From contig CP154954.1 in the NCBI GenBank assembly GCA_039621445.1, forward strand, positions 3,291,715-3,355,714: 64,000 bases of DNA, read 5' to 3'. Source of the DNA: Euglena gracilis. Its lineage: Eukaryota. The translations under genes were made by a program, and so were the position numbers. Below are positions 4,301 through 61,176 of the stretch, in pieces. Below the pieces are notes generated by a model. The model saw only the letters and a list, made by a program, of their open reading frames with translations. It was not told where the DNA came from and searched no databases. Position 1 is the stretch's first letter. Every line of letters starts with the position of its first letter.

Positions 4301-7300
4301 AGCCAAACACTTTGTCCGGCACCTTCGGCGCCGGGTCACTTTAGTGGTTTTTGCCGACCCCCCCCCCCCCGGGGGAGGGGGGTCCAGGCCAAAAACCAGT
4401 CCGTCACTCTGAAAAACCAGCCACCCACCCAGGGGGGGGGGGGGTCGGCCAGTGACCAAGTGATTCCATGGTAAGGAACCTTCTTCAGGCTGGAAGCCCT
4501 CACCACCACATGCCAGCATGCTGTTTTTCCCAACCAAGCCAGCACGCAGGCCTTGCCCGTTTATGTTACATCCTGGTGAGAAAGGACGGCAGAACCAACA
4601 GCGACACATAACGCTTAAATGATGAGTGATGATGTAGCAAAAGACAATGGCAGAATTTCAAAATTACAGCTCCTTTCAACACCTGAGTTTTGTTTGGTTG
4701 ATTGAATTTAAATTATTAATTAATTGAATTTTACGATCAAAAACCATACCCCCCCCCCCCGGGCAGTTCCAAGGCACAAATTCACCAGCACAAGGGAAAG
4801 TTAAAATTACAGGGATGGCATTCAATAGCACAGAGGGAACAACTGCCAACAAGGAAAAAAAATGCAGAATCAATGATGACGTTTGACCACTTGCAACACA
4901 TATTGAGAACTCTGAAGCCCAAATACATGCACTGTTTCCAACAAGTCCCCTCCCCGTACCCACCGATTCCTACAACCCTCGACCAGGGGTCACACCCCCC
5001 CCTGACCTGCAACCCCCTACTGGGGGGTGGTCGGTATTTAGTGGGGCAAAGGGTGGGTACAGCCACAAACAAAATCTCAAAAAATCTCCAACAAATAATC
5101 ATGGGTTTTTTTCCATTCTGACCCAGACTCAATTACATGGTTTATGGAGGGGGAGACGATTCTCGATTGCCAGATGGATTCAAATTGGCCATTTGCCACT
5201 ATTATTTTGGCTGCGGAGGTCACCGTCACACAGCGGGTGAGCAGTGGGCCAAGCGGGAGGGGGCTGGGCCACCCCGTCGCCCAGGCAGGTGTAGCTGACG
5301 CGGTAGCTGCAGCCACTCCCCAGGGCCGGAGCTGCTGGCCAGACGAGCGGGAAACAGTCCCAATGCAAACCGCGATTGGCGGCAAGAGTGGTATCCTGTC
5401 AGCTCGGGACAATCCCGTGATTGCATCCGCGGGTTGATCCTTGCATCTGCTCCGGGTTTCGGCAAAACTGTCATGTTTTTGAGGAACGCTCATGTCACTG
5501 CTCCCCGACAGCGGGTCCTCGGTGTCAGGGTCTCAACGTTCCGGCCAATCAGGCTGTTGTCAGGTTGCAATCCTGGGGGAGGCTGACTCTAGGGAGGTCC
5601 GGGGGGAGCATAATTAGAGGAACACGAACACCTGAGGCTCGCTCATGGGGTAGCAAGGGTGATGCCATTCCACGATACAACCATCGATGGAAATGGGGGT
5701 GGTTTGACAAACCGGGAATGGGCACAGAGGGCACCGAAGACAGGCACGCGACCGGCCCTGGCCGAAGTTGCCCACGAGGCACTCCCCGGTGTGGATGCCC
5801 GCGCGGAACTTCAGCACCGGCAGCCCGCGGTCCTTCCACGACCGGTGCAGGTCCATGACGCAAGCGGCAGGGGCCGGCAAAACGGGCAAACAGAAATGGG
5901 TCGGCGGGTGGGGGGGGCGTTTGTTCCGGAGATGGGTTTCTGGGCCAGCTTCTGGGCCCAGGGGTTTTTTTAAGACCGGGGGGGGGGGAGGGGGTCCCGG
6001 GGGACCCACAAAAAAAAATGTCCGAAAAATCGCGAAAAGTGCTAAAAATAGAATTTTTTCGGTGTGTGCGGCGCCGAAAAGTATATCCCACCCCCCTCCG
6101 GGGGGGACCCCCCGGGGGGGGGGCTCGGCCAGACCCACCCACCCTACCCCCCCCCTCCCCCCCGGGGGTCCAAACTTAAAAAAATCCCTGTCTGGGCCAC
6201 ACCGGGGGGCCACAACGTGACTGGGGTAGACCCCGCACCACCGTGCACCGCGCACCACACTGCACACCTGCCTTCCGCCACACCCCGCACGTGCGTTGCC
6301 TTCGCGGCACAGCCCCTGGGCGTCCTGCATCGCCAACGACGCCGCCACGGCGTCCCTCTCGTGGCTGTGGAGCCGGTCCGGTGCGTTCCACATCGCCATG
6401 GCACAGCACGGCGGTGGAGTCTGGCATGCCCCTCGGGAAACTGTCACCTGACAGGACCGGGAAAATGTCCGGGGTTGGGTCTTGAAGTTTGCCGGGACCA
6501 AGGACCCTTGGTCCTCAACTTCCTCCAAATTCCTGTCATGGACCAGGGACCCTGACAGGTTTTTGGCGTGACAATCTCCCTGGGGGTACGTGGCTGTGGA
6601 AGTGAACGCCACTGCACTGTGGCTGTTTGCTTCGTGCCATTCATCCCTTCTTCCGGCCTGGCGTGGTTTTGGCCTCTGGCCATTTTTGTCTGTGAACGTG
6701 GCGGTGACACGTACACAGGGCCGGGGGTCACACAGGCTGACAGGATCGTGAATGGATGGTCCGGTACAAAGAAGCATACGAGTGTTGTTGGCAAACGAAT
6801 AAAATGAATGTCGATAATTATGGAAATTGAGGGATCACTGTAAACATGAAATACATAACATTTAATGGATGGATCCCCTGAACAGACGCAACTTCAAAAC
6901 CACCCACTGCAACGCTGCCGATGCAGTCGCCAATGAACTTGTCAATGGTGCCGTTGCGTCCTACGATGTTGGACAGCTGAGTCCAGCCCGGAGAGGAAAG
7001 GAATGCCTCCGAAAGGTGAGCAGAAAAAAAGGCATCACACAATTTGTTACCAAACTCCCAGCAGGAGGCGCAAAATGAGTTGGCACCGAAAGTAGAGGAG
7101 AAAGGTGGCCCAGGGGGTTGTGACCATAGATTCACTTAGTGACCCAGGGGGGGGGGGCACCTTTTCTCGGCCCTGAACCCACAAAACCAATTTTTTCGAA
7201 AACCCACTCACCCACGACCCCCCCCCCGTGCTGACTGGGTGGTTTTTCTGGAGGTGAACGATTGTTTTTTTAGTGGTTTCATAACCTTTGACCAACCCCT

Positions 7301-10300
7301 GGAAATGGGGGGCATTTTTTTTCAACCCAGCATATTGCCATTTTAAAAAAAATTCGAGCAGCTCCGTGGCGGCATTGGGGACCCAGGGCACTGCACATGG
7401 CCTCGAAGTACTCCGTGCACACGGAAACCAGAACGGCGGGGAACTCGTTCTCACAGATGGTGGAGAAGCCCTCGATGTCCGCAAACATGATGGTCAGCAT
7501 CCTGGGGGCAGGCTGCCTCCCTTCTGCGCGGTTTTGAGTGTTACATGTCAATAGTTAAATCATTGAAACTGTTTGCGGACGGTGAAACACAAAATTGCAC
7601 ACACAAAAAAAATCACAAATTACAAGTGAAGAGTTGTTTCAAATAACTGACGTCATCCAAATTATATACATTATGAAAAAATAATAATTCTCAGCAGTAC
7701 ACTCATACTACAAAAGAAAATACCCTGTTTTTTTAGGTGAGTAACACCAGCCAGTTAAAGCAATTTTCCCTCCTGGATAATTTAGATTATTGCTCCCGCA
7801 CCACCATATTGGTCGCAGTTGAGGAGGATGCTGGACACTGGGTGAGCACGTTTGTTGGAGTGCAGGTTTCTTAACTGACTTGGGTGAACACTTTCTTTGC
7901 AGTCTTTGCGGAGCGAACTACACGTTGTGGGATTCATGATACATATGCGTATGCGACGAAATTATGTGCATACTGTCCCCCGTCTAAGGACCAGAAAAGA
8001 TGGGTACCCCCCACCCACTTGCCCGTGCGCACATTTGCTTACATGGTGAAGTCTGAAATGCAACAGTAATTAGATTGATAGGGTATACAATGAGTGTGTG
8101 GTACGTCGGTGGAACAGCCCACAGTGGGAAACCCTGTGCTCCACTCCTGCTGTTTGGTGGCTGGCCTGCGTGGGATGCATCTCATCGTTTGCCTTCATTT
8201 GGCCAGCGATCGAAGCCAGCCCCTGGACGACGACTTGGACTCGGTTCAATTTCCAGCACTCTCCTTACCAGGTCCGGGGGTGGTCCTTATTGAGGGCAGG
8301 CTGAACTTGACAACCCCAGGGGGGGAGGGCGGTCTCCCCAGGGTGCCCCGGGCTGCCTGCGCAGGCAGCCAATACCCCCCCCCTGGGGTCGTGCCTGCCT
8401 GGTCAAAAATGCCCAAAAATGGGCTTTCCTGGGCTTCCGGCACAAGGAGTGCCTTGCCTGAGTGCCCAGAAGGCATAAGGACCCCGAGGGGGTAGACCAG
8501 CTAGCTTTTACACCAGACACCAGGAAAAGCCACTACCTATCCCCCCCCCTGGGAACTGTCACCTGACAACTTTCTGTCATGACCCGTTGGCCGGTACTAA
8601 GGACCCTCACAGTTTCCTGGGCGGGATCCTGACAGTTCCCCCGGTAGGGCATTTCAGGGGAAAAGCATTGAAAAAAATGACCCTGACAGGTTGGCCGGTA
8701 CCGGGGACCCTGCCAACTTCCTATCATGACAAGTTGGCTGGTAACGAGGACCTTTGGGGGTCAATAAATTTAATAGCGCTTCATGCCGGTCAATGGAAAA
8801 AAGTTCAATGCCTTGGATCCAGGGACACTGGGGTTTCCACTGGCCAAATTTGGAACAGCTGCAGTCGAGCCGAACCCCTCTCCCCGGGTACTTCCAACCA
8901 TTATGCCAGAATCAGCGAACCAGAACAGAACAGAACAGCGATCCAAAAACTGGTGCCCAAAGCAATTTTAGTCATGTACCCCTCCAGAGGTGGAATCTGG
9001 GTGCTTTGGAGTGCCTGACCAGGATGGCTCCGGGGGGGGGGGGGGGTTGGCCTTGCCTTAGAAATCAGCTAGATTGGAGGGGGGGCTGTCCAGGAAAAGA
9101 TGGGAAGCCTTGAGGGGGGGGGGGGTCGGACCCCTCCCCTCCTACCTCGAAACTCACATGGACCTGGAAAACCTTCGGTTTCATGGACGGGCAAAGGGCA
9201 GGAAATTGGCCAAAATTGTTCAAAAACCCTCTGATTTTTCTTTGAAAATGAATGCAAAAATGCTCATTTTTGAAATTTGAATGTGTTTGAATTTCAAAGA
9301 GTGTGGGCCAAGAGACACCCCAGCAAAGAGAGGCAATTTTCCTGTTTTACACTTAGCGACTTTGGCTGGGTCCAGCCAGCATCTTCTATCCAGCCAGCAA
9401 GGACCACAAAAGTACCCAAATTAACGCCCATTGCTGGCCAATTAACTTTCAACCAAACAAGATGGAAAGAAAGGTAATTCTTCTGATGACAAGGCGTGTG
9501 TACGCCTGTGTGCACATATGTTATGTGCTGTGTGTGTTTTGTGTGTGTGTGTGTGTGTGCGTGTGGGTCGGTGGGTGGGTGGGGGGGGAGGGGGTGGGTG
9601 TAGTGTGTGCCAGAACCAAGGACCCTGTCATTTTCCCAGGCGGGGCTCCAACAGGTTCTCAGGCACATGACAATTTCCTCGGGGGGGGGGGGGTTGTCCT
9701 GTGTTGTTGGCGTGCAACGTGCTCTGCGACAGTTCAGAGACCCACAGAGCGCATGCTTTGCTGCAACAGGTCTATCTGCGATACTGCACTTCAACCGGGG
9801 GGGTGGGGGGCAGAAGAAAAGGAGAAAAGAGAAATTCAACAACTGACGTGGCACATCTCCCAATTTGTAACCCCGGGCTGCCCAGCACCTTCACCACGCC
9901 GTGCGGCACGAACTTCCCGAACGCCTGCAGGCCGCGCTCCATCTGGACGAAGGAGGCCTGGAAGCGGTGCAGCTCCCGGAACACGGTGGGCGGCGGGGCG
10001 GTGGTCGCGAACTGCAGCTGCGCGATGCGGTCCATCGGGGGCAGGGCCCGCCCCGTTGGCCTGATCAGCACCACCAATGAAACCGTGGAAACAGAAGCAA
10101 AAGGCAGACGCTCTGGCCTGCCCAGGGCGGCGGTCATTAAGCGAACGAAACAAAGAATGGAAATAAACAATCTGCTGGCCCAGGGCACTCAACTGAAAAC
10201 CCACCGGGAAAATGGGCAAAAAGGCTTTCTGTGAAGCTTCTGCTGAAAAAAACGAAAAAATGCGCAAAAAATGCGAAAAAATGCGCAAAAATGCGCATTT

Positions 10301-13300
10301 TTGGAAAATTTGAAAAAATGCGCAAAAAATGCGCAAAAATGCGAAAAAATGCGAAAAAATGCGAAAAAAATGCGAAACGCATTTCCCCCCCCCTGCTTCT
10401 TGGCGAATACAGGTTGACGCCGGGGGAAAAAAAAAGGTTTCTGGCATCCTTGGGCCATCGCCAAACCAGCCAAAAGATGAAAAACTGTGATTATCGGCTT
10501 TTTAAGTTTTGACCTCTTTCCGACCTCGGTCCGGCCCTTGGCCAGCCCTTTGGCCGAAGGGTGCTCCTTAAGGGGTCGTCCTGAACATGATAAAAATCCA
10601 GATAAAAACAAATAAGTAATAATCTTAAGGGTTGTCCCTTGAGGACCGCCCTGGGGCTGCCTGAGGCTACCTGTGGTGACCTCTGGCATCTCAGGAATGA
10701 CAGTCTGAGGGGGGGACCACTTCATGAACCGGTGTGGGGACAGGCCCTGCTTCCCCGTGCGAGCATGTAGAGCCGCGTCGCCAGCCACAACCCTACGCTG
10801 AGGGGAAGCAGGACGGCAACGGCGCTCACCACTCCGAGGATGACGAACGGCGGCGGAGGGTCGACCACGTTCACCCACACCCCTGTGCCCCGCACGGTGA
10901 ATAGCTCTTCGGGGGGGAAATTGAACGAGGTGCCCCCGGAGAAATGCTGCCCAGAAATAGAGATGGAAACACGAAATGCAACACGTGCTGGAAACACTTG
11001 AAACCCCTGTGAACAATCACAAACCAAATGTTGAAACACAGCAGTTCAGATACCTAACCACCTCTGACCAACTAGCTTCCCCGCTGTCCAAGAAACTGCA
11101 ACGCAATGTGCTGTTGGCACATGAGGTGTGTCAACGTCCTTAACGTCAACGTCTTGAGGGTTACTCAAAATATGTCATCATTCTGCTTGAACCCGGACCA
11201 AAACTCCATGGTCCAAACACCCCAGCTGTGACCCCCTTCTTGTCCGACACAGACTGGTCCACGTAGGCGTTGCTGGCGTCGATGCTGCCCATCACCGACG
11301 CCCGGCACTTCAGCATCAGCACCGTGCACTGCAGGGTGCGGCCGGGCCGGGGCCGGAAATGGAAACCATCTGATGGCATAAAACCCCCCAATTAAAAGCC
11401 CCCCCCCAAAAAACAACCCCCCCCAAATAGAAGCCCCCCCCCCCCCGGGTTTCCCACCAAAAAACCAAACAACAGCCCCCCCCCCACCCCCCGACGAAGC
11501 CGGCCGACAAAGTTGACGAAAAATTTTCCGAAAAATAGTGAAAAACTCGAAAAATCTCCACAAAAACAGGTCGACATCGGGAACAAAACTGATATCTGGT
11601 GTAATTGAAACATGGCCTATCCACACAAAACTCGAAAAAAAGCGGCTTGCAAATTGTTAACTTTGGACCCCATTCGATCCCCGGATCGGCCACCGGCCGA
11701 ATGTTTTTCCTTTAGTCAAAGGGTACCCAGTCAGAAGCCCTCCCCCCAGGTTTTCCGCAGAGTGACCAAACCTGGGGGGCTTCTAATTGGCGGGTTTCAC
11801 TTGGCAGCAATCATGCAAAATGAAATTTAGATGGAGAGCACAAGGCAGAAAATACATCTTTGCAGATTCAGCCGGGATTCAATCAGTGGGTCTTTTTTGG
11901 TGGGGGTCCAACTTTCGCCGGCGACGAGTCAAGAAATTGAACCGCCAGAAGCCACCCCTACACCCCTCTCCAGGCAACCAATTTCCGCTTTGCTGGTGTT
12001 TTGAGTGGGTTGGACAGTAAACGAGACATTGCCCCCTTGAGATTTTGTGGGTATTTTTTGAGGAAGAGTGTCCGGTTCGTTTTGCCCAATTGCTGTCTAC
12101 ATGTTCATAGACATGCATACACTTGATATTATATGTATGTGTGCATACATACTTATATGGTACAACTGTCTCCTGACAGGTCAACAAATGCCGACCCTGA
12201 CAAATTCTGAAAATGACTGGTCGACCATTTCCAACAGACTCCGAGCATACAATTTTTTACTGACCCCCGGGGGGGGGGAGGGGGGTCACTCCACCCTTTT
12301 AAAAACCAGTCAGTCACTCATTTTCAAAAAACCAGCCAGTCACTACCCCCCCGGGGGGGGGGGGGTCGGCCACTCAGAAAAACGGCCACTTTCCCGTCAC
12401 TTTAGGCCATTTTAGGCCAAAAAAAAATATTCCGGCGCCTTCGGCGCCGGGGTCACTCAAGCCACTTTTGCCCACTCCTGGCCGACCCCCTTAGATGCAC
12501 TTTGGCTTCTGTCTGGCCGACCCCCCGGGGGGGGGGGGGGGAGGGGGTCCGGGCCAAAAACCAGTCAGTCACTCTGAAAAAAACCAGTCACCAACCCCCC
12601 CCCCCGGGGGGATCGGTCAGTGCTTAAACAATTGCCTGATTCCGAGGCATGACAATTTGATCGGGGAGATGGATATGAAAACCCCTCCAAAAATAAGACC
12701 ACGGTCACTCAAGCCACTTTTGCCCACTCCTGGCCGACCCCCTTAGATGCACTTTGGCTTCTGTCTGGCCGACCCCCCCGGGGGGGGGAGGGGGTCCGGG
12801 CCAAAAACCAGTCAGTCACTCTGAAAAAAACCAGTCACCAACCCCCCCCCCCCCCGGGGGGTCGGTCAGTGCTTAAACAATTGCCTGATTCCGAGGCATG
12901 ACAATTTGATCGGGGAGATGGATATGAAAACCCCTCCAAAAATAAGACCACGTTCCAATAAACCCCCCCCGCTCCCAAAAAAATATTCCCTGGGTCGATT
13001 GGCAAAAACCCAAAAATAAGACCCTTCCCAACGTTAAAAGCAAAGAGCTGGAGACAGAGAAAACGTCCCTGGAAAAAAAATACCAAAAACCTGGAGTATG
13101 GGCACAAAAATGATGAAAATTGCCCGGGCCCGGAAAATAACAATACGCCCCCTGGAGGTTTCCAGCAACGGATGCAAAAATGAGCCCCGGGCCTTTTGGG
13201 GGGGGGGGGGGGGCATTGAAATACAGGACTTTGGAGGCGTCAGAAATTTTGGATAATGAGATGTTTGGCTCTCAGTTGAAGCCCGATATCCTTCATTATA

Positions 13301-16300
13301 ATTCTTTGCAGAAAGAAACAGACTGAGTCGGCCCAGCCAGCAACGATGGTCCGCTTTTTTTTGGACATTTGTTGCACGTACACACGTCCATACGACGGTG
13401 AGCTGCCCTGGCAAGCAGCACTTCCGTTGCGACCCCTCTCTGCCCCGCCACCGCCGGCTCCGCTAGGCCGTCCAGCCAGGCATCCGGCCATCCCCGGCCC
13501 GATCACCGGAGCTGTAGCCGGTGGCCACCCAGTACCGCTGGCCCGCCAGCACCATCTCCTGGTTCATCTCGAGGATGGCCGTCCATGATCGGCAGCAGAG
13601 GAAGTGCCTTTCTTTCCATTCAAGCACCCCCCAACCTCCAGGCCCCTGCCAGCCGGTACCGCAGACATTAATAATTTCTCAACAGGATAGTTTCTCGAGG
13701 GTGGGCGGTATATTTGTTAGGAAAGTAAATGGTTTTTTGTTTTGCAGGGCTTTTAACCCAAGACCCAAAAGCGATTCAATCAATACAGTGGAGACAGGGG
13801 TTTTTTAAGACCGGGTGGAGGGGGTACCCCATCCACCCACCTGAAGGGGGGCCGCCATGGGGGGACCCACTCAATTTCCCCCGAAAATGGCCCAAAAATC
13901 GCGGAAATGCCAAAAGCAGTACCTTTTTCAAAAAATTGCGGCCTTTGGCGCCGAAAAATATATCCCACCTCCCTCTGGGGGGACCCCTGGGGGGGGGCTC
14001 GCCACCCCGGGTCCAAGGCTTAAAAAAAACCCCTGAGTGGAGACCAGATATGCTGGATCTGAGCCCGAGGCTGAGCCAGCTGCAAACTGTCCAGCTGCAA
14101 ACTCTTCCCAGCCAGATGCCCTCAGCCACATCACCCATTCGTGACGGGGAAAAAAGTCCTTGTTGAAGACTCGGTGAAAGTGTGTGGCTGGATTCTTAGC
14201 ACGCCATGTGTGGTGAAGTCATTCCTTTTTTGCAGGGGTGGATGGACCCTGCGCTTGGGTGCTTTTGGGGGACGCGGGGGGGGACGCGGGGGGGACGCGG
14301 GGGGGAACCGTGGCCCAACCACCCCCACACGTTTTCTTTCGCATCACCTAAATTTGTATGTAATTTTCCTTTGGTCGACCAAAAAAACGTGCCCGGCCAA
14401 AGTCCGGGACGCGGGGGATGCGGGGGGGACGCGGGGGGGACGCGGGGGGAACACCCCCTTTGAAGTAAGGATGCGAGCCCTTCCCCTGCCTGGTACTTGT
14501 CGTACAGCTGCTGGCAGGCTAGGGCGATGAGGGCGTCGTTGCTCTGCAGCATGGAATCACTTAGTGACCCCAGAGGGGGGGGGGGTGGCTTTTCCCCGGG
14601 CCCAAACCCACACACGACCCCCCCGCCCCTCCCAGGGGTGGGATACACCTGGGTCGGGTTATTCCCCTGCTGAAGGCTGGACTGGATATTTTTTTTCAGC
14701 GGTTTCGATTTTGGCTGGATTTTGGGTGGGTGGTTGGTTGACCCTCGGGGGGGTGGGGGGGTCGTGTGTGGGTTCTCAAAAAAGTGGGCACCCACCCACC
14801 CTCAAAAACCGACCCCCCCCTGGGGTCGCGGTCACACAGGTTTTAAGTGAAGCCTTGCTCTGCAGGCAGGTCCACAGGCTGTAGGCGGAGATGTTCGGGG
14901 GGTGCAGCAGCGGGTTGATGTAGCGCGCGTCCACGTCGCTATGGCTGAAATACTTCCCGTGGGAGGCTGGGAGCGGCAGTGTCTCAGGGGGTCAAACCCC
15001 GCCCGGCCAAATGAAGCAAAAGAGGCCGCAACGCTGGACACCTTTCCAGCCAATAGAAACTGCAACTGCGACTGCAACTGCAAACATCTGCCTCTGGAAA
15101 TACCAAAAGAAACCTGTTGTGGTGATATCGCCCTTCTTTCTTGGCACATGGAAACAATCAAACAAAAAATTCTGCAGAAGTTGCTCCACCCCACTTCAGC
15201 AATGGCCTTTGGAAGGTCAATCACCCCAACCCACTGCGCCCAAAACATTTTGGCTTTTTAGAATCCCCCCCCCCCCGTGCCCACCGACCGAGTTCCTACA
15301 ACCCCCGACCAGGGGGCTCACAAGCACCATCTGTCTTGCAACCCCTGATGTGGGGGGGGGGGTCGGGTGAGGGGTTGGGCGACTTGGGCCATTCCTCAAT
15401 TATTTGTGCCAGCCCCACCCCCGTCTGTACCATACCCCCAACCCAAGCTGTTGCTGTGGGTACCGCCCCCACAGCATTGAATGCCGGCACTCTGTTGAAG
15501 GGGTATCTCTCGCACTCATTTAATTACAGCACGTTTAGGAATATGCTAACTCTGTGTTCTGCATATGTGTGTGTGTGTGTGTGCGGGTGCCAAAAAAAAC
15601 CCCTGTTTTCCCAGGTTACCCACAACCTTCAACCGGGTGGGGGGGGTCGTATGCACCCTGCAACTCCCGACCAGGGGGTGGCCAGTACTCAGAGGGGTGG
15701 TCGGTGGACAAGGGGGGGGATCAGGTAATGTTTGTTGCTGCACACACCTCCCCACATGGAGGCAATATGAACGCCCCCCATTAGAATCCCCTGGGGCTAA
15801 TATTCGGTCACAATGGGGGAGGGCTTCTATTTGGGTATCTTTGTTTGACTTCGGCCAAAAGGTGGCTGCGGGTGGTCCGGGGATCGAACGGCGTCCGAAA
15901 GGGGAAAATAAGGTCGAAAACGTGACTTTTGATGCTATGGGTGGATGGCGGATGGTCCAAGGATGCCAGATATCAATTTTTTTCTTAATTGTCCCCTGTC
16001 TGCAGAATTCCTCTTAATTTTGGCAGTGTTTGGTCGAAAGTGCTGGGCCGCCCAGTAGGGGGGAGGGCTGTCATTTGGTTTTGGGGGGGGGGGGGCGGAG
16101 GGCCTGTTTTTGGGAGATTTGGGGAGAGGGCTTCTATTTGAGGGGGGGGGGGGCACACTGGTGTGGGTGTCAGGGCTTGGTGGTCTTGCAGTGACGTTTA
16201 ATCTGACGCTTGGCTCACCGCCGAACCCAGAACACACTATCAGGAGGACCACCCAGAATTGAACGGCAACCTCCCAGTGGTTAGCGACAGTTCTTGAAGA

Positions 16301-19300
16301 TTTGTCATCCCCCCCAGTTATCAGCGGTTAACATTTCATGGAAATCAATGGTGGCAAACCATCGCCGGGCGCTATCATGTAGCCATGCGCCTGGCGGAAA
16401 AAGAGCGCCAGTCGGTCTCTGGCAAGCAACCCCCACTGGGCTGGCTCCCAGGGTGGTTGTCTCACCATTCAGGCCCGCAAAAACGGCCGGAAAGTTAAAA
16501 GAGTTTACACATGTGTGGCATCGAGCTAAAAAAAAGGGTGTGTCCTTTAATAAAACACCCGGTCACAACAGGAAGTATTTGTGCGCCAGCTAAGCACGGG
16601 TTTTTGAAAGGCTCCGGGGGGTCAACCGGCTGGCTGGAAAGCGTGCTGGAATACTACAGGTGCTGGCTGGCTGGCTGGCTGGCTGGGCTTTTTTGGTTAA
16701 GAGATTCTTGACCAAGGCCTGAATACCACGTGGTTTGAATTGAGGAGAGGAGGAGGTGAGCTGCCGGAGGCGCTTGGGCATCGGGGAACCCCTTCAGTTG
16801 GCTCCGCAGCTCATCGCTGATGGTCGCGGCCCCAATGTTGATGGTCAGCTGTATCCCCGTCCCGTTCTGGGCCGCGATTTGGGCCCAGGGACAGCCTTGG
16901 GGACACTCTTTGGAAACTAGTTCTGTTGGAAGGAACGGCTTTGCGTCGGGGTCATACCTGTACTTTGGAGCAGTTCCCAAACCCCTTCCAGGCACTTAGG
17001 TTGGGAGGGAGGGCTTGTGAAACCCGACACTGTGGTTGAAAAAGGATATATTGCGTGCTGACACACGGGATTCACATCACTGGATTGTGGTTTGGCACCC
17101 AGACACACTTCAAATCGACCTGGCTATATTTGAAAATGGGGCCAAATCAAGCACTTTGCGTGATTCGACGGCTGGATCTACCCCACTGACCACACAGCTC
17201 CAGTCTTTGTGGCTTGTTAGATACAAGACTCTACCCAAAGGAGGTAAACCTACAGGTTTTGGTGCCAAAGCTCTGACTCCCCCTCTTCCCAGAGACCCAA
17301 ACCATATGCCCGCGAAGAGACCCAGAAAAAACAATTCCAACCAAAAAATCTTTCTCGGACTGCACCTGGAAATACGGAGATGCATATCTTGGCGTCACGT
17401 TTTTTGAAAAATAGGACGGAGCTTCTTGTTAAACTCCCCCACCCACATATAAACTCCCAAGCCAACAAATCAGCGACTACAGAGGTCGGTGACAGGTGCC
17501 CATGGTGACAGGTCAGCGAGCACGGGGCTCAGGTGACAATTTTCCGAGATGACAATTTCAGGGGGGAGGGGTATTTAGGGGGAGGGGGTTGGTTCAGATC
17601 TTGTGGTTCGAGGGGAAACAATGTGAGAAAGAATCTCTGCAATCTAAACCCCACAAAACATAATAAGGTTGTTCAGACAATTGGTTAAAATATCGGGGGG
17701 GGGGACTGTTTGGGGGAGGGGCAGGGTTAGATTTTGCGTTGAAAATTGTCCCGCCCTCAGAATACCCACAAAAATCCAGCAGGCTGTTATTCGAGGGAGG
17801 CTATTATTTGGGGAGAGAGCAATTTTTGGGGGGGGTTCCTAATAGACTGGGGGGTGTACCTACCACCTCCACATACAGAGACCAAAAAAAAAGACCAGAG
17901 GCGAAAAACAGCGCCAGGCCAAAGAAGGGATAAAAGGCACCAAACAAACAGCCACAGCGCACACAAGGGGGGTACGTGATGGATCTAAATCTAAAGTAAG
18001 TGTGTCAAAAAAGGACGTACTTCGAATGCACTTTCGGGGAAGTCGGAGAGGGGAACCCATCCGGAAGGGAGGGTGGCACAAGGGAGCCCCTGTGCTCTGC
18101 CGGAGGACCAGCTCCACCTGCCCTGTGAACCGGTTCCACGCCATGGTGGTCAGCCAGCCGTCCACCCACTTCGCCAGCCTGGGTCGAGGCCCTACACTGA
18201 CTTTGCCCTGCCCGTCCGAAGAACACAAAAGCGGGCTTCGTTTCGTTTCTTGAGCGGCAATTAATCCACAGCATTCCGCGACAATTGTTCCCCAAACAAC
18301 GTGCACTCTGTTTAGCCAAACTGACAACAATTCCTGACAACAAATATCAATACCTTATTAGATCCGAACATAATTTCAAAACAGCCCTGATGGCATAATT
18401 ATTTCACCTCTCATTTCTTCCTCCTCCTCGTTCTCTGGCACTAAGGTTTTAGTTAGATCCACATTTCATCCCCATTTCCAGCTCTAAAAATTACGTAAGC
18501 CAAAAGAAAAATCAGTACAGAAAAACACAAAAGAAACACATATTATCTCAGGCGGTAGCAGATCATCAACATTTGGCAAAAATGAGGGGTAGGAGTGAAT
18601 TCTGCATCTATCATCAACATTTGGCAAAAATGAGGGGTAGGAGTGAATTCTGCATCCACGTAAACAAATCAGAATATCTCTGCAGCAAAAACTTGAGATA
18701 CCCTCTTGGCGGCCACCTTTTTTTTCATTTCATTTTCAGCCAATTTTCGGGTTTTTTTCGAAAACGAACCAAAGGTAATCAAGGAAAAGAAGACAATGAC
18801 AAAAAAAGGATTCCACCTCTGGAAGTGAGTACCTGACAAGTCAGCAAGCACAAACTGGAGCACAATTTTCTGGGAACAATTTTCTGGGTGGTGGATTTCC
18901 CGCATGACCCAAGGTGACAAGGCCCTGTGGGGGGGGGGTGATAACTTCCCAGATGGCGGGGGGGGGGGGGTAGTAAAATTAAAGGATGGTCCCGCCCCAT
19001 GTAATCCAGCCTGTGTGGCATTTGGGTCAGGGGAGGGCCTGTCAAAATAAGCAGCAGGCGCAACTTGTGATTGAATCAAATACCTCGGCTTTGCAGTAAT
19101 CTGATTCACCTGCGTAATGTTGCCTGGTAGGTCCCCTCACCAGCTGAAGTCAATCCAAAAAGATCCAGTACAGTCTTCAGGGCCATTCAGCTGAGGTATG
19201 GTGGAGACTACTGCTTCTCTTTCGTTCCTTGGGTCTGTTTTTCTTGGTTTCTTGGTTTCCTGGAAAGTTTTGGCAGAAAACTTTGCAGGGAGTCCATAAA

Positions 19301-22300
19301 AAAAACAGAAAATTTACAATACCAAAAGATTCTCCGAAACAAAAATACCAAAAAATGGTATTTCAACCATTTTCTTATGTCCAAAATGTTTGCAAAGGAA
19401 ACAACAGATATTCAGCTTGTGAGGTTGTGGGGTTTATTTCTTGGGTCGGTCATTGAAACTCCTGCGAAGGCTTTTGCTGGTATCCAGTCATTTTGTCAGA
19501 GATCTATTGTCTGGATGGGGATTGCAGGAATAAAGTTCCAAGCCCACTCCCAAGTGAAGGACAGAATTGTAAATGGCATGGGTAACAAAACTTTGTCAAA
19601 CTTCTGGCTGAGAAACAAACCGCAAAAGCCGTTGAAAAAGTCACAGAGGGGGCCCAGCCTAAAGTCGAACTCTTCTCATTGGCGGCCATCACCAATGGGG
19701 TGCTGTACAGTGTGCGCGTGCCGAAGCTGTTGTTGAGGAAATCCATATAGAACGCCACCCACGTCACCCAGAAGGTGGGGATAAAGAAACTGCGGGCAGG
19801 GGAAGCCAGAAGGATGCATCCAGAAAATGAATAAAAAAATACTTGTTGGCAAAAGCAATCCGCAGTGTTTGTCATCAGACCGTTTGTTACGCCAGGCCAA
19901 ATATCTCAACAATTTTGATTCCCATCAACCAGAAATCAGCACCTCCCACGGTTATTGACCCCCTGAGCTGTTGAGCACAACTTGACCCCCTCCCCAAAGT
20001 TGACTCCCACCTCTGTTGGGCCCAACTGGACCCCCCGAAAAAAAGTTGCAGAATCACAAATACATCGCGAGGAATATTTTCTTTGCAGGTATGTCTTCTT
20101 CGTGAGCTGATTCACAATCAGATGAGCACTTGACTTGGGTAAATTACACGAGCGGAGAGGTATGGGAATATAGACAAAATAATGTTTGTTCAACTGTGCG
20201 GCAATCCATCCATCCTCCTTCACATCCACAACTGCATCTTCTGCATTCTCTCACCTTTTGATTGACCTTGAATGAAATGAACTCCTTGCAAGAGACCGAA
20301 AATTTGTACATCACGTGTTAAAATCAAATGTTCAAATTAGAAACAAATGGAGGGAGGCTTCTCCGTCCCCCTGGGCCTCTGTGGGGTCCAGGTAGCTGCC
20401 GATCACGGACACCTGGGAGAAGAAGCGGTGGCCTTGCATCGTGGTGAAGGTCTGGCCAGTGAAAGGGGCTGCCTGCACCTCTAGCCGTTTCAGCACAGAA
20501 AGCTAAAGAAAGCACAGAGAGAAAGAAGGGGGTTGCTGAGCTCTTAACGCAGACCTCACCATGGTGGACAAAAACTCGCCTCTCTGACCCACGAATTCTG
20601 GACCTGTTTGGCCGCCCGAAGGGCATCGAGATGGTAGTGATGTCTTACAGAAAAAAACCCTATTTTTTAAAAAAAATGAGTTCTTAATGTGAGGAATGTT
20701 AAAGAAAATAAAAATATGTGGAGAGTACATTGCATAGTACAAAAAATGATTTCCAAAATCTGCCCCCCCCAACCTACTTACTGAAACCTACTGCCTACTA
20801 CCTATTACCTGCTACCCCAACTGGCAACACCTTTTCTCCTGCGCCAAGGTGGAAATGGGGTTTGTACTGAGGCTTTTTTGCCTGATTTTGTTCTACTTAC
20901 TGGCAAAAAAAATTTGTTTCAAAAAACTTCAAAAATGGACATTTGGGAGGGTCAGGGGGGACCATATAAGAAAAGCTCCCAGGGCAGGAATCGGTTCATA
21001 CCGGAACTTTGGATAACCCCAGCAGGCTTCTGTTTTTGCAGACCACCTCCCAGGGGGGGGGGATCGACTGCAGCTAGTTCAAATTTAGCTGGTGGAAATC
21101 CTAGTGGACACCCCCCGGAGGGGGGGGGGGCAGAATTTTACTGGTCCCCAAAACGAAAAAACCGTTTATTGATTCTAACGTTGCACCTGCACAAGTTACA
21201 CCCGTTTTACTGGACCCAAGTCAAAAAAAAACGCCTTTCTGCTAGCAATGAAGAACACTTTGAAAATAACTCCCCGCGCACAGGGTGTTTTTATTTATAA
21301 GCCTTTATTTAATTCTTATATTCTGTTATTATCATTGTGTGTATGTGTTTATTTTGTGCTTTTTATTATAAACATGTAGGTCGCGTGTGCCTTTTTATGC
21401 ACATAAATATGTCATATGCATATACATTCATGTGCACATATGTATACATGCATATATGTAATTATCTATTCTTGTAAACCCTCCCCCCAAATAATCCCCC
21501 CCCCAAAATAATACCCCTCCCAAATAATACCCCCCCTCGGGTCCGACTTTAGGTTAATACCTCCTCCCTGATTTCGGGCCAAAGGCCCGGATTTTGACCT
21601 GAAAATACAATCTCTGGCAACGAATTACGAAAAAAAATCGATTTTTCTGTATCGTCTGACCTCTTAAAAATAAATGGCAAATTCCAGAAGAAAATACAAA
21701 AAAATGAGCCCAAAGGGGGTCAAATGGCGCTTTTTTGGCTCCTACGGGACTTCGGAAGTTCTCAAAATTTTGGGGTGCTATGACCCCTTGGGCTGGGACT
21801 TGGGGCGAAAAAATAATACCCCGGGGGTATTATTTGGGGGGGGGGGGTATATGAAAATATGTGTGTACAAATTGAGCAGCCCCATACCTCTGGGCCCCTC
21901 CCCAGAGGCATGACCTGGGGTGGGGTCCCACTTGTATGGGGCATTTACGCGGGTGTCACCACTTTACCACCGTTTTGTGTAATCCTTGAGGTAATTCCTC
22001 GCAGTAGGCCTGGGGTTGGAGTTTGCATTCCCGTTTTGGGACAATTCCAGGCACAGTCAGGCCTAAAGTTAGCCCAAATTTAGCCTAAATTTAGGCTAAA
22101 TTTGGGCCCTGAAACTCCTATAACTAAGCTTACGGGAACCTTCCCTATCTCCAAACCTAACCCGAAACTTAATCCTAATTCTGACATCAAACATGTTTTG
22201 GTCCCCTAAATTTCACAAAAATCCTGCGGAACCTGGGAATCGGGGGTCCGTCCCTCTTGTAATTGGGTCTCCTGGGAGGGGTCCTAGAGGCATGGCGTTC

Positions 22301-24878
22301 CCACTTTTTTTATTTTTAAATTACTGGGTTTAAACCATTGCTGCACACTTGATTTATTGAGCTCAGCACCGCTTAAAAACGGCTAAAGCTCACGCAAATC
22401 CAGATGTTCCACATCTGAAACTGTTGTCTGGATCCAGTTGTGCAGAGTCAGGCTAACGTTTGTTAATGGACCTCCCCCACAGAGTATTTTCCAGCTGAAA
22501 TGGGAAAAGTCGGTCAAAGATGGCAAAAATCCAAAAATAAGATCCCCAAAAGACCCCCCCCCCTTGGCGGCACAAGCGGAAGGGAGGGTAAATTTTTTCC
22601 CAAAAAAAGCCTTAATTCCAGTCACAAAATGACGGAATTTCAAATATTTTCAGCTTTTTGAAATGCTTAGTCATGGTAAATATCAGCTTATACCAATTTA
22701 CACATGGCGCGAAGTGCCGAGGGAAAAATTTTTGGCGTTTTGGGAACCTAAAAAAATGTTGCTATTTCCTCTGTCTCGGTTCGGTCAAGAAAAAATACAA
22801 AGATAAGGCACCTCCAAAAAATAAGACCCCCTGGAGTTTTCCAGCAATAGACCCAAAAATAAGACCAAGGATTGGTGGTTATCCATAGTGGGTCATGTTT
22901 TTATCCTTAGTTATCTGCAACCATCGGTTTTAAGATAAGCACAAATCCCTGATAAGACCAGGGTCTTATTTTGGGGGTTTACCTGTAAATCAGTTTTCAT
23001 CGCACTGAGAACTGTCTTGAACTTGCCTTCGCACTTCAAAAATGGGAGTTCCATGAGCTCTGTGGGACAGAAGTGAGCAGGCCCAACCGCGGGATATCAA
23101 ATCGCGAGGGTCGCAGGTCGTCGCCGGACACCTGCTCCCTTGCACCTCCTTCAGCACACTGCAGTCCCCGCCAAAAAGCCACAGCCCCTTCTTTTTCTGT
23201 GTCCGCCGGGTGCCTTGCTCACAGAAGGGGTACCTTTTACAGCAGTGTTCCAGAATCTTCGGGACAAAAAGTTTGCAAGAGCTTCCAAGATACTCCTGAA
23301 GAATTCTGGCTCTGGGGTGCAAGGGGAGCCCAACCCCGCATTCGGTTCGCTGCAGGTGCCCAGCCGTAGCCCAGCACCCCGCTGCCCTGCACCATGAGAG
23401 CCACCTCCGTCATCTCCTTCTCGCCCTCCGTCAGCCGAGCGTCGAACCGTTCGATCGCCTGGCTCACCAAACAGGTTTAGGTTGGAAAGGTTGGCCAACC
23501 GAATTAAAAAAAAATATGTTCACCCGACGTTGCCCTGTGGATTTCACAGACTTACAGACTTACAAGCTGTTTTGACACCTCTCCCCTCAGAGAAACCAAA
23601 TCCGCATAGAGGCAAGAGGCAGGTCAAGGTTATGGGTCAACCTTTCTTTGAGGAATGCAAAAAAAAAAACTGAGAATGGGCTAGAGTGGTGTTCTTGTTC
23701 ACTGAAAGGTCAGAAAAAAAAACAGGAAAAAGAAGGGCTGGACCTGACGTTGAAAACTGAAATTCTTGAGAAGGGTGTTCCATTTTTAAAAACGTTTCAG
23801 CTGCTTTTGTAATTTCTGTAGTTTTGGCCATTTTGACCAAAACGGATCAAAATCAATGGTTTTAGGCCTGTTTGAGAATCTGAATTTTATTCTTGAAAAA
23901 GCCAATGATAAATAACATACAAAAGATTCAACACAGTAAATCTCTGTTCCAGTTTATAATTTCAGGGGCAAGTGTGTGAGTTTTCAGGTCCATGTATGAG
24001 ACGGGTGTCCAAGGCACAAGCAGGCAAGGGCATTTGCCTCCCTCTCCATGACTTGGATTGACAAATCAAGTCAATCCAAGGACCTACAATCACAAGGGAA
24101 TTTCTTAGGGGGAAGGTCCAGCCGTCCAGCTGGAAAAAGGTGCTGGCTGGACCCCCCCCCCTATGGGGTGGGGGGTCCAGATGGTTTGAACCCGGCTGCC
24201 GCACTGGACCTGGCTGGAACCCGAAAACAGGCAAAAAAAGCCCGAATCCAGCTGGCAGCTGGGATGCATTTTTCAGGCAATGAGCGCTTGAGGTGGGGGG
24301 GAAAAGCGTACCAAAATGGCCCTTTCTGGTACGTTTGACACTTTTTCAAAAAGTTTCGGCACTTCGGTCCGAAAAAAATTTTTAGGCTGCAAAAAAATTA
24401 TTCTCAACCCCCCCCCCCCCCGGAGGGTCCACAGACCAGCTGGGAGCAGGAAAAAAAGTGCTGGCTGGCTGGACCCACCCGGGGTAGGGAGGGGTCCGGC
24501 GTAAGAAATTACCTGCCAACAAATCAAAGAATTTTTTTCTTTGATTCAAAGAATGCAATAATAGACAATTTTACTATCTGAAATTGACACATTTTTCTGC
24601 CATTTCTTACAAACTCGGGCAATTTCGACCATTTTGCTGGTTCAGTGTGACAATTTGGTTGTTTATTCACATTCGATGCAAGGAAAACCGGTATCCAAAT
24701 TTGAATGTTGGATGTTCTTGACTGCCTCAACCTGCACATGAGCAACTGTTGGATATTTTGTACGATGACGTCCATTGAGTCCCGCGTGGTACCCCGCAGC
24801 AGGTCCACGGAGGACGTCATCAGGTCCATGAACACCACCCAGATGATTATGGCCGGGGCAAGCGACAATGCAAGTGTT
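1300..24878 (-). CDS. Multi-exon receptor-type class III adenylate cyclase, gene 1 (span of supported exons; 3' end off the left edge, 5' end probably further right)
   Basis: Spliced exons give TM (TLALSLAPAIIIWVVF), a sensor region, TM (FVILGVVSAVAVLLPLSVGLWL), HAMP (MDRIAQLQF...FRELHRFQASFVQMERGLQAFGKFVP) and a cyclase domain (TIMFADIEGFSTI, DKFIGDCIM, RAGIHTGECLVGNFG, SYTCLGDGVNLSSRLE). Resolved joins stay in frame using stem-defined splice sites. Confidence 0.92.
1773..1882 (-). CDS. AC gene 1 exon: EVLPVYEVLCEAGGVETRTPKAADLPGTVGVDMQREP
   Basis: Acceptor CTG-ccaga|; VYEV motif; paralog exon starts at 53725. Confidence 0.85.
2255..2348 (-). CDS. AC gene 1 exon: TFICVSHSTYEACQHDFHFRRLAKVTVPGKA
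   Basis: Cyclase C-terminal motif VxVxGK; 94 nt, same length as the paralog exon 54392-54485. Confidence 0.92.
2405..3235. mobile_element. hAT-like non-autonomous element with (GCGGTCGGCT)n subterminal repeats
   Basis: TIR CAAGCTCCTATG/CATAGGTGCCTG; flanks GTCCTTTC/GTTCTTTC; homologous to 58053-59857. Confidence 0.85.
3370..3551. mobile_element. MITE with TA-flanked inverted ends (Tc1/mariner-like)
   Basis: TACCGCAGAGCC...GGCTCTGCGGTA; interior shared with about 230-650 and 55765-56090. Confidence 0.6.
3584..3853. mobile_element. hAT-like MITE
   Basis: CAGGC...GCCTG ends; flanks CTCCCATT/CTCCCATA; same family as 26658-26961. Confidence 0.8.
4073..4113 (-). CDS. AC gene 1 micro-exon: NLSSRLEALNKKFG (catalytic Asn/Arg)
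   Basis: NxxSRLE motif; donor ggc-CAGGGTG pairs with CGCCCTG near 2354. Confidence 0.92.
4144..4470. mobile_element. hAT-like MITE (CCAGTCAGTCAC family)
   Basis: CATG...CATG ends; perfect TSD GTAAGGAA. Confidence 0.88.
5270..5314 (-). CDS. AC gene 1 micro-exon: GCSYRVSYTCLGDGV
   Basis: YTxLGD motif; same sequence as the exon at 57578-57622. Confidence 0.9.
5764..5862 (-). CDS. AC gene 1 exon: CVMDLHRSWKDRGLPVLKFRAGIHTGECLVGNF
   Basis: RxGIHTG...VGNF motif; donor CAGGGCCGG pairs with CCGGCCCTG. Confidence 0.93.
5959..6190. mobile_element. hAT-like MITE
   Basis: CAGGGGTTTTTTTAAG...CTTAAAAAAATCCCTG; perfect TSD TCTGGGCC. Confidence 0.9.
6322..6399 (-). CDS. AC gene 1 exon: MAMWNAPDRLHSHERDAVAASLAMQD
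   Basis: MAxWNAP motif; donor gcc-CAGGGGC. Confidence 0.9.
6920..6970 (-). CDS. AC gene 1 exon: NIVGRNGTIDKFIGDCI (substrate Lys, second Asp)
   Basis: DKFIGD motif. Confidence 0.92.
7390..7503 (-). CDS. AC gene 1 exon: RMLTIMFADIEGFSTICENEFPAVLVSVCTEYFEAMCS (first metal-binding Asp)
   Basis: Class III cyclase motif FADIEGFS. Confidence 0.93.
8172..8211 (-). CDS. AC gene 1 micro-exon: IAGQMKANDEMHP
   Basis: Acceptor CTG-gcttc|, donor |acg-CAG; bridges KVL to RMLTIMF in frame. Confidence 0.8.
9884..10036 (-). CDS. AC gene 1 exon: HAMP domain, MDRIAQLQF...GLQAFGKFVPHGVVKVL
   Basis: HAMP/signalling-helix pattern ending FGKFVP, typical just upstream of class III cyclases. Confidence 0.9.
10753..10848 (-). 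CDS. AC gene 1 exon: FVILGVVSAVAVLLPLSVGLWLATRLYMLARG (second TM helix)
   Basis: Hydrophobic helix; donor aag-CAGGGCCTGTCCC pairs with GGGGCGGGCCCTG near 10042. Confidence 0.85.
11228..11337 (-). CDS. AC gene 1 exon: TLQCTVLMLKCRASVMGSIDASNAYVDQSVSDKKGVT
   Basis: In-frame joins on both sides; GC3-rich. Confidence 0.82.
12246..12638. mobile_element. hAT-like MITE (CCAGTCAGTCAC family)
   Basis: CATACAATT...AATTGCCTG; flanks ACTCCGAG/ATTCCGAG. Confidence 0.82.
12451..12952. repeat. Tandem duplication, unit about 250 bp
   Basis: 12451-12702 repeated almost exactly at 12703-12952. Confidence 0.88.
13505..13590 (-). CDS. AC gene 1 exon: RSWTAILEMNQEMVLAGQRYWVATGYSSG
   Basis: Donor gat-CGGGCCGGGG pairs perfectly with CCCCGGCCCG near 11343. 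Confidence 0.85.
13795..14035. mobile_element. hAT-like MITE, same family as 5959-6190
   Basis: CAGGGGTTTTTTAAG...CTTAAAAAAAACCCCTG; perfect TSD AGTGGAGA. Confidence 0.9.
14492..14544 (-). CDS. AC gene 1 exon: SNDALIALACQQLYDKY
   Basis: Joins the previous exon across a duplicated CTGCAGAG; donor agg-CAGGGGAAG pairs with CTTCCTCTG. Confidence 0.85.
14545..14860 (-). mobile_element. MITE-derived nonconventional intron of AC gene 1
   Basis: CTGCAGAG duplicated at both junctions (plus-strand TTGCTCTGCAG at 14539-14549 and 14855-14865); inverted ends CAAGGCTTCACTTA...TAAGTGATTCCATG. Confidence 0.85.
14861..14968 (-). CDS. AC gene 1 exon: ASHGKYFSHSDVDARYINPLLHPPNISAYSLWTCLQ
   Basis: Acceptor CCG-ctccc|; GC3-rich. 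Confidence 0.85.
16371..16417 (-). CDS. AC gene 1 micro-exon: DRLALFFRQAHGYMIA
   Basis: In-frame joins PD|DR and IA|ASHG with paired intron ends. Confidence 0.8.
16780..16887 (-). CDS. AC gene 1 exon: WAQIAAQNGTGIQLTINIGAATISDELRSQLKGFPD
   Basis: Donor gcc-CAAGC pairs with GCTTG-ccaga before the next exon. Confidence 0.8.
18103..18180 (-). CDS. AC gene 1 exon: RLAKWVDGWLTTMAWNRFTGQVELVL (an exon upstream is probably still unidentified)
   Basis: GC3-rich frame; donor cgg-CAG. Confidence 0.7.
19660..19791 (-). CDS. AC gene 1 exon: SFFIPTFWVTWVAFYMDFLNNSFGTRTLYSTPLVMAANEKSSTL (3' boundary approximate)
   Basis: Acceptor CTG-cccgc|; in frame with the previous exon. Confidence 0.72.
20377..20466 (-). 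CDS. AC gene 1 exon: FTGQTFTTMQGHRFFSQVSVIGSYLDPTE (5' boundary uncertain)
   Basis: GC3-rich frame; donor gcc-CAGGGGGA pairs with TTCCCCTG near 19797. Confidence 0.72.
21474..21852. mobile_element. Non-autonomous element with pogo-like ends
   Basis: GTAAACCCTCCCCCCAAATAAT... and inverted ...ATTATTTGGGGGG...GTATA. Confidence 0.55.
23087..23119 (-). CDS. AC gene 1 micro-exon: DLRPSRFDIPR (3' boundary uncertain)
   Basis: In-frame join GY|DLRPSRFD across an 11-bp intron stem. Confidence 0.65.
23366..23464 (-). CDS. AC gene 1 exon: SQAIERFDARLTEGEKEMTEVALMVQGSGVLGY
   Basis: GC3-rich codons; donor TGGGCACCTGC pairs with GCAGGTGTCCG near 23125. Confidence 0.8.
24737..24878 (-). CDS. AC gene 1 exon: TLALSLAPAIIIWVVFMDLMTSSVDLLRGTTRDSMDVIVQNIQQLLM (first TM helix)
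   Basis: Acceptor CTG-ttatc|; donor stem CAGGTT pairs with AACCTG before the next exon. Confidence 0.8.
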
Positions 24879-25985: not shown

Positions 25986-28790
<2,805 letters not shown>

Positions 28791-32825: not shown

Positions 32826-33262
32826 CAGGTTTTTGCTTAAGGACCCCCCCGGGGGGGTACTGGCAGCCAATCGGCTAGACACTGGAAAAAAACGGACTAG
32901 CCAGACCCCCCTCCCCCGGGGGGGGGGGGGGGTCCAGGGGTCCCCCCAACTGGAAAAAAAAATTTCCTCCAGCACTTTGCACCAGAGGAAGAAATGAGGT
33001 TTTTAATAGGTTTTTGGCTGATTTTGTTCCAACAAATCCCCAAAATGGCCAAAAACGGGCAATTTTGGCCATTTTTGGGGGTCCCAAAAAAAATTTCGGC
33101 GTTTCACGCCGGTCACTTGGAAAAAAATTCCACAACCGAGCCCTGCTAGTAGACCCCCCCCCGGGGTGGTCTGCTAGAAATCCCACTAGCCAAATTTGAC
33201 TAGCTCCAGTCCAGCCCCCCGGGGGGGGGGGGGGGTAGTGCAATCCCTTAAGCAAAAGCCTG
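32826..33262. mobile_element. hAT-like MITE
   Basis: CAGGTTTTGCTTAAGG...CCTTAAGCAAAAGCCTG; perfect TSD CCTTGGGC. Confidence 0.9.
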
Positions 33263-39974: not shown

Positions 39975-40244
39975 TACATACATACATAAATAAATGAATG
40001 AATGAATGAATGAATGAATGAATGAATGAATGAATGAATGAATGAATGAATGAATGAATGAATGAATGAATAAGAAACAAACAAACAAACAAACAAACAA
40101 ACAACGAATGAATGAATGAATGGATGAATGAATGAATGAACGAATGGATGGATGGATGGATGGATGGATGAATGAATGAATGAATGAATGAATGAAAGAA
40201 TGAATGAATGAATGAATGAATGCATGTATGAATGAATATACAAA

Positions 40245-40279
<35 letters not shown>

Positions 40280-60949: not shown

Positions 60950-60981
<32 letters not shown>

Positions 60982-61176
60982 TGTATGTATGTATGTATGT
61001 ATGTATGTATGTATGTATGTATGTATGTATTATGTATGTATGGATGGATGTATGTATGTATGTATGTAGTATGTATGTTTATATGTATTGTATGTATGTT
61101 ATGTATGTATGTATGTATGTATGAATGCATGTATGTATGTATGTATGGTGTATGTAGTAGTATGGTACGGCCTTTG

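Follow-up and report, generated by a model that had tools for sequence, protein, structure and literature searches.

The window analyzed here (the whole 64,000-nt stretch of Euglena gracilis contig CP154954.1) is eukaryotic nuclear DNA and carries, on its minus strand, an adenylate cyclase gene in which one coding exon is split by a short insert that resembles a miniature transposable element with inverted repeats (MITE) and is removed precisely from the RNA. The gene is near-identical to EukProt EG_transcript_7248. A protein search with the exon upstream of the insert returned this protein together with EG_transcript_1461, EG_transcript_9244 and GGOE01048912, and the adenylate/guanylate cyclase domain PF00211 is present in all transcript-derived proteins matched by that exon. 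Mapping of EG_transcript_7248 (591 aa, hereafter P0001) onto the window with tblastn yielded 20 minus-strand exons running from 24829 to 5761 with an identity of about 90–100%, and the mapping of paralogues carries the gene on to about 1757. The insert is intron 10 of the P0001-based gene map. An earlier note on this DNA, made from the sequence alone, had described the exons ...SLWTCLQ and SNDALIA... as being separated by 316 nt. The mapping agrees, as the gap between them spans 14550–14865 and P0001 runs SLWTCLQSNDALIA uninterrupted over the junction. The features at this site are:

14866–14969, minus strand: upstream exon of the cyclase gene, ending in ...ASHGKYFSHSDVDARYINPLLHPPNISAYSLWTC and followed by the first duplication copy (tblastn of P0001 and junction mapping).
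14858–14865, minus strand: 5' copy of the putative 8-bp target-site duplication (TSD), CTGCAGAG, exonic or intronic according to register.
14550–14857, minus strand: putative element (MITE) body, 308 nt, 60% G+C, CAAGGC...TCCATG, forming one long hairpin and removed from RNA.
14844–14857, minus strand: left terminal inverted repeat, CAAGGCTTCACTTA (inverted-repeat scan).
14550–14563, minus strand: right terminal inverted repeat, TAAGTGATTCCATG, whose last 13 nt equal the right end of the element at 4144–4470.
14542–14549, minus strand: 3' copy of the putative 8-bp TSD, CTGCAGAG (repeat scan).
14491–14541, minus strand: remainder of the downstream exon, ...NDALIALACQQLYDKYQ, with RNA joints 14538->14855 and 13589->14491.

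The 8-mer CTGCAGAG does stand at both junctions, as the earlier note had claimed, and the exact direct repeat is even longer, at 11 nt: CTGCAGAGCAA, or TTGCTCTGCAG on the plus strand, at 14539–14549 and 14855–14865 with a spacing of 316. The three surplus bases (CAA) are present because the start of the element happens to match the bases after the target. Given an 11-nt repeat, there are 12 equivalent splice registers that produce the same mRNA. The intron occupies 14550–14865 in the register used here and 14545–14860 in what we call the 5+3 register. Its 316 nt are accounted for by the element (308 nt) and one duplication copy (8 nt) with nothing more, and this speaks against later invasion of an old intron. 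The duplicated 8-mer belongs to the coding sequence (L-Q-S) and is conserved in the paralogues P0002 and P0004. Pairing of the intron ends was found as described previously, with CAAGGCTTCACTTA and TAAGTGATTCCATG matching at 11 of 14 positions. When two flanking bases are added, the terminal arms are 16 nt long and 81% complementary. For the RNA of the whole insert, the minimum-energy fold is a single long hairpin closed at the junctions (−164 kcal/mol, z = −6.1 relative to 100 shuffles). The insert is small and non-coding, with stops in its reading frames. No protein match was obtained for the translated insert with its intron-encoded open reading frame (ORF) or for the read-through ORF (searched in the "near" length range of a database that seems poor in genomic ORFs of this organism), and the flanking-exon reading frames had no Pfam match. 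If retained, the insert would introduce a stop after 27 codons as well as a frameshift, since 316 is not a multiple of 3. The insert combines terminal inverted repeats, a flanking duplication of fixed length and a small non-coding body, three of the features expected of a MITE.

To follow the insert in RNA and DNA, two raw-read RNA runs (X21 and X24), a set of contigs found to include spliced cDNA (X15) and a set of DNA contigs (X1) were mapped onto positions 13400–17000. The joint 14538->14855, which skips 316 nt and has 11 ambiguous letters, was found in 5 reads of X21 (27 mapped) and 2 reads of X24 (23 mapped). X15 includes one spliced contig with the 316-nt joint; it covers 14855–14969, also skips intron 11, and enters the next exons on both sides. 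By contrast, none of the 4137 mapped DNA contigs of X1 has the joint, and no empty site was seen among them. One X1 contig (14832–15014) reaches 34 nt across the junction between exon and insert, and a second one (14582–14713) falls within the insert. The joint predicted for RNA-seq data therefore appeared in three RNA runs and not in the DNA run. Removal leaves the frame TGC CTG CAG AGC AAC GAC, and in all, three junctions of the cyclase gene were confirmed by RNA. At 14500 (D to G, as in P0001), 14502 and 14869, the majority of the RNA reads depart from the window sequence. These variants also occur in X1, and the X1 contig that spans the junction has the same 14869 G>A change as the RNA, so the expressed allele carries the insert in its DNA. 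Within the insert, X1 differs from the window by single-nucleotide polymorphisms (SNPs) at 14656 and 14683, meaning that at least two allelic forms carry it. Further exon differences between the window and the RNA or X1 were noted at 16390, 16407, 13572 and 13580. From the exon differences it follows that the allele, haplotype or strain in the assembly is not the one that is commonly sequenced. The summed X1 word depth inside the insert reached 22337 and 5191, compared with about 70–100 in neighboring single-copy bins. The interior is thus built of high-copy sequence (50–250x single-copy depth), although this may reflect modules rather than whole copies.

None of the 12 equivalent registers of intron 10 has GT-AG or GC-AG borders, and it is therefore a nonconventional intron of the euglenid type. 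Besides its non-GT/GC-AG borders, it has the paired ends that join the splice sites and the precise removal that characterize the class. It is in like company: all 19 P0001-mapped introns of the gene (5761–24829) lack GT/GC-AG in every register, and no conventional intron was seen in the gene. According to the accessible part of Nomura et al. 2025 (PMC12501133), nonconventional introns make up 71.8% of the introns of Euglena agilis, and a splicing code defined by knock-ins, 5'-N3-CDG ... CH'G-N5-6 followed by a purine, holds for 61.2% of them, leaving 38.8% outside. In the reporter intron described there, a single change in either CAG or CTG was enough to abolish splicing. Among the 19 mapped introns of the cyclase gene, 10 fit the code, and in 9 of those 10 the next base is a purine. 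The 5+3 register of intron 10 reads GAG-CAA ... ATG-CTGCA, then exon G, and is one base off on each side. In line with the code, its helix begins at +4/−6 and the exon continues with a purine. The third motif pair is an A-A mismatch, yet the intron is spliced. An alternative fit to the code by way of the palindromic CTGCAG in the duplication was rejected, as it would excise 8–14 nt too many relative to the 316 observed. As cited in the part of PMC11282704 that was available, Guminska et al. found that nonconventional introns are excised as full-length circular RNA, after the conventional ones.

To identify related elements, the window was scanned for exact 8-bp direct repeats that immediately flank a 14-nt inverted repeat with at least 10 of its 14 positions matching. 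This returned 26 matches; 30 dinucleotide shuffles gave 0.7 on average and 2 at most. Fifteen of the 26 belong to tandem arrays, another six are weak matches whose ends are not CA...TG, and the five with CA...TG ends include intron 10 (11/14). Together with the element at 4144–4470 (9/14, recognized by eye), there are six elements with a flanking repeat of exactly 8 bp. Besides intron 10, the related features are:

4144–4470, plus strand: 327-nt element lying within a different intron of the cyclase gene, bordered by GTAAGGAA at 4136–4143 and 4471–4478; its right terminus matches that of intron 10.
5959–6190, plus strand: 232-nt element, CAGGGGTTTTTTTA...TAAAAAAATCCCTG (13/14), 8-bp duplication TCTGGGCC, inside intron 19.
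7125–7183, plus strand: partial copy of the intron 10 right terminus, 79% over 63 nt, inside intron 17.
13795–14035, plus strand: 241-nt element, CAGGGGTTTTTTAA...AAAAAAAACCCCTG (12/14), 8-bp duplication AGTGGAGA, inside intron 11; high-copy in DNA reads.
32826–33262, plus strand: 437-nt element, CAGGTTTTTGCTTA...TAAGCAAAAGCCTG (13/14), 8-bp duplication CCTTGGGC.
51100–51449, plus strand: 350-nt element, CATACCATTGCTTA...TAAGCAATGGTATG (14/14), 8-bp duplication GGCTGGAC; lies within a second cyclase gene, in one of its introns.

The terminus said to be common to intron 10 and the element at 4144–4470 is indeed shared: within the 64 kb there are exactly two copies of the 13-mer AAGTGATTCCATG, one at 14550–14562 on the minus strand and one at 4458–4470 on the plus strand. 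The interior of the insert had also been likened to a repeat at about 7131–7230. Here the likeness held for the terminal part, namely the partial copy at 7125–7183, whose terminus has 2 mismatches in 14, and failed for the rest of the interior; a left end for this copy was looked for and not found. The elements have a common layout, with a 14-nt end that starts with CA and finishes with TTA (TTG on one arm of 4144–4470), followed by GACC..GGGG modules. The element at 4144–4470 is 75% identical to 42701–43014 over 318 nt and 63% identical to 51100–51449 over 310 nt. A seventh element-like pair of termini at 26658–26961 (13/14) lies within a microsatellite and its flanks are uninformative. No transposase was detected among the 19 ORFs of the window scanned against Pfam, none of which matched any family. 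Metagenome matches to the 16-nt terminus at a minimum of 118 loci were dismissed as chance, as none of those listed reaches beyond the pattern in comparisons with the relative at 42701–43014 and the seven elements. Two other scans are of little use: a search for inverted repeats only gave 973 matches, mainly long palindromes and tandem arrays, so that its flank-length histogram is not interpretable, and a displaced-window control of the 8-bp scan was uninformative for the same dominance of palindromes and tandem arrays. The CAGG...CCTG termini of the elements at 5959–6190, 13795–14035 and 32826–33262 contain the CAG/CTG motif bases of ordinary nonconventional introns, and by the published code the two that lie inside cyclase introns (5959–6190 and 13795–14035) should be excisable from the pre-mRNA in either orientation. 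The six duplications (4136–4143, 5951–5958, 13787–13794, 14542–14549, 32818–32825 and 51092–51099) all have a plus-strand G at position 5, and position 6 is a purine in five of six. With n=6 and element orientation not standardized, these shared bases may reflect a target preference or chance.

A copy of the exon without the insert was found in a paralogue. P0003, an ORF from assembled public reads, equals the paralogue P0004 at 53 of 53 residues over the whole exon pair, and its exon is uninterrupted (SSHGKYF...CLQSDDAL...SKY). Unrelated, intron-like sequence begins at its borders at the positions of introns 9 and 11. The paralogue therefore has the neighboring introns and lacks intron 10. 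An empty P0003 and at least two filled allelic forms would place the insert after the split of the paralogues and before the divergence of the alleles. The proposal that the intron was gained by transposon insertion into an exon is accordingly supported, by the precise splicing and by a paralogue without an intron here (one contig, from DNA or partly spliced RNA), with "recent" to be taken in a relative sense.

We consider it very probable that a 308-nt non-autonomous DNA transposon (a MITE) inserted into the cyclase exon, duplicated CTGCAGAG, and is now removed as a nonconventional intron. The element would have come from a source group having 14-nt CA...TG terminal inverted repeats and making 8-bp TSDs, and it would have entered at the codons CTG-CAG-AG(C), duplicating the 8-bp CTGCAGAG in a site that would previously have read ...TGCCTGCAGAGCAACGAC... 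In the pre-mRNA, the inverted ends would pair to form a long hairpin that places the two duplication copies side by side, and the nonconventional (non-GT-AG) removal system would then excise the element together with exactly one 8-nt copy and restore the frame. The cuts would be set from the terminal helix with the spacing of the published code, 3 nt beyond the helix on the 5' side and 5 nt beyond it on the 3' side.

Several observations weigh against this explanation. The terminal inverted repeats are imperfect (11/14). Apart from one diffuse match of 127 nt at 61% identity, what the interior shares with other elements is confined to short G/C-rich modules (22–73 nt, E 2e-4 to 8e-3). No second full-length copy of the insert was found within the 64-kb window, and the left terminus has no close second copy there either, matches with 3 mismatches being at chance level. 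The likely membership of intron 10 in the family is thus based on its termini, duplication length, size and layout, not on a sister copy. None of its 12 registers fits the published N3-CDG/CH'G-N5-6 code with the following purine. The variant allele supplies most of the RNA reads (5 of 6 X21 reads have 14500 T>C), so that splicing was not seen separately for the window's own allele. Finally, the polarity of the event, gain here and not loss in the paralogue, would hinge on the duplication being intact and on a single contig of the paralogue (DNA or RNA).

Some of these points could be accommodated by staggered double-strand break repair, in which filler DNA was taken from a repeat-rich region and the 8-nt repeat is a filled-in overhang, with no transposition involved. 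Such repair was proposed for the 8-nt junction repeat of a new gapC intron of E. agilis, according to the available part of Milanowski et al. 2016 (PMC4770533), and the missing full-length sister copy and the generic high-copy modules of the interior are as this process would have them. However, the inverted repeats of the insert stop exactly where the duplication starts, 13 nt at one end recur unchanged at the end of another 8-bp-flanked element, and CA...TG inverted termini with duplications of exactly 8 bp are seen in five more elements of the window, which is the signature of a transposase and not of random filler. We therefore regard repair as improbable. Rated lower still is the idea that an older nonconventional intron at the same position was later replaced or invaded by a MITE. 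MITEs do lie within other introns of the gene (4144–4470, 5959–6190 and 13795–14035), and every other mapped intron of the gene is nonconventional, but 316 equals 308 + 8 exactly with no intron sequence outside the inverted repeats, the duplicated 8-mer encodes the conserved L-Q-S of the paralogues, and the P0003 contig has no intron at the site. An equally slim chance is given to an insertion ancestral to the paralogues that was precisely lost from the other copy, which would make the intron MITE-derived without being recent: P0003 is the sole paralogue examined at the DNA level, and the insert, with SNPs at 14656 and 14683 in X1, is already present in two or more allelic forms, but the 8-bp duplication is still perfect even though 3 + 5 of its 16 positions would be free to drift once intronic, and the gene's 10 code-fitting introns have only 24 of 80 such positions still alike.

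A probable MITE insertion that is spliced out as a nonconventional intron can be compared with several known systems. Like the euglenid nonconventional introns described by Tessier, Canaday and Milanowski (splicing code in Nomura et al. 2025, PMC12501133), intron 10 has non-GT/GC-AG borders, a stable stem formed by its paired ends, a slidable junction repeat and precise removal, and it resides in a gene with 19 of 19 such introns. It differs from them in that it has no CDG at +4..+6 with a CH'G 5–6 nt before the exon, and its junction repeat measures 8 (11) nt, compared with a slide range of only 0–5 nt in the other 18 introns of the gene. Another parallel is intron 4 of gapC in E. agilis ACOI 323, which is also nonconventional and has eight-nucleotide direct repeats at its junctions (PMC4770533). 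As far as the accessible text of that study goes, this intron is strain-specific and absent from relatives, and the authors favored double-strand break repair and named no transposon family. Unlike what is described there for gapC intron 4, the ends of intron 10 are inverted repeats common to other 8-bp-flanked elements. Introners (Micromonas, dinoflagellates and others) likewise create new introns in exons from a non-autonomous element with inverted ends and its duplication. In the portion of the review that covers them (PMC11282704), they are spliceosomal and rely on GT/GC-AG sites that they carry in or co-opt, whereas intron 10 lacks such sites and belongs to the structure-dependent euglenid class. 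The elements in the window also resemble MITEs of the hAT type in that all six have an 8-bp duplication and three have CAGG...CCTG termini. MITEs of this type make 8-bp duplications and have termini beginning with CAG/TAG. The ends of intron 10 are CAAGG / CCATG, which differs from this pattern, and hAT is therefore used as a candidate label.

MITE-like insertions were proposed as a source of nonconventional introns by Milanowski et al. 2014 (Mol Biol Evol, PMC3935182), and according to the part of that paper available, no transposon had then been identified in euglenids. In the accessible sections of more recent work, including the 2024 review (PMC11282704), Nomura et al. 2025 (PMC12501133) and a diplonemid study from December 2025 (PMC12621601), a MITE origin is still only a suggestion. 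Our literature search, with subscription journals and supplements outside it, found no paper that pairs a euglenid nonconventional intron with free copies of an element. The locus is thus strong supporting evidence for the published MITE-origin hypothesis and is confirmatory, not a new idea. Its value is that an intron with demonstrated splicing and its presumed parent elements, which have the same terminal layout and the same 8-bp duplication, can be compared directly at one locus. This makes the origin and abundance of nonconventional introns testable genome-wide through element termini and 8-bp flanks.

The arrangement also suggests a more general relationship, which we put forward tentatively and rate as somewhat more apt to fail than to hold. 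The spacers of the code, 3 nt ahead of the paired CAG and 5 nt behind the paired CTG, could be the two parts of an 8-bp duplication, in which case nonconventional splicing would amount to precise excision, at the RNA level, of one group of MITEs (perhaps hAT-like) with CAG...CTG ends and 8-bp duplications, and most nonconventional introns would be decayed insertions. With a helix that starts at the first base of the element and an 8-bp duplication, cuts at 3 + 5 would remove the element and one copy from any target and in either orientation. If this is true, any new insertion of such MITEs into an exon would be harmless at once, whichever its orientation, and 3 + 5 = 8 would explain the spacer lengths of the code, which have so far been purely empirical. 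The free elements have the form TSD8-CAGGGG...CCCCTG-TSD8 and the ordinary introns of the cyclase gene the form N3-CAGGGG...CCCCTG-N5, layouts that would fit the latter being decayed versions of the former. A search for leftover duplications in the 10 code-fitting introns found 24 of 80 positions alike, no signal above composition. No residual duplication is expected for old insertions, yet this leaves the general claim unsupported in the window beyond the one intact case. The link between spacers and duplication is possibly new: within the scope of the same literature search, no paper connecting the 3- and 5-nt spacers with an 8-bp duplication was found, and the terms "hAT", "8 bp", "8-bp" and "8 nt" are absent from the review PMC11282704.

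Several other features of the window were noted in passing. A second adenylate cyclase gene, paralogous to the first, is represented by its 3' part on the minus strand at 50473–57622, with a per-exon identity to P0004/P0002 of 42–100%. The two cyclase genes are in tandem and in the same orientation. Intron 12 of the first gene contains a 249-nt unit that is tandemly duplicated (12451–12952, 96% match) and includes modules related to the element at 4144–4470. Short arrays of an 11-nt unit, GGGGGACGCGG, are found in intron 11 at 14267–14306 and 14406–14450. The X1 DNA word depth of these arrays is 80,000–134,000, compared with about 80 elsewhere, and the motif must therefore be very abundant in the genome. 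The region at 38000–42000 has a G+C content of 0.36, compared with about 0.5 in the rest of the window, and the ORFs there have no Pfam family. Positions 26000–28900 and 60000–62300 are taken up by long simple-sequence tracts with strand skew (GC skew 0.38 and 0.76) that resemble (GCGT)n and (TATG/CATG)n, and the element-like pair of termini at 26658–26961 falls within the first of them.

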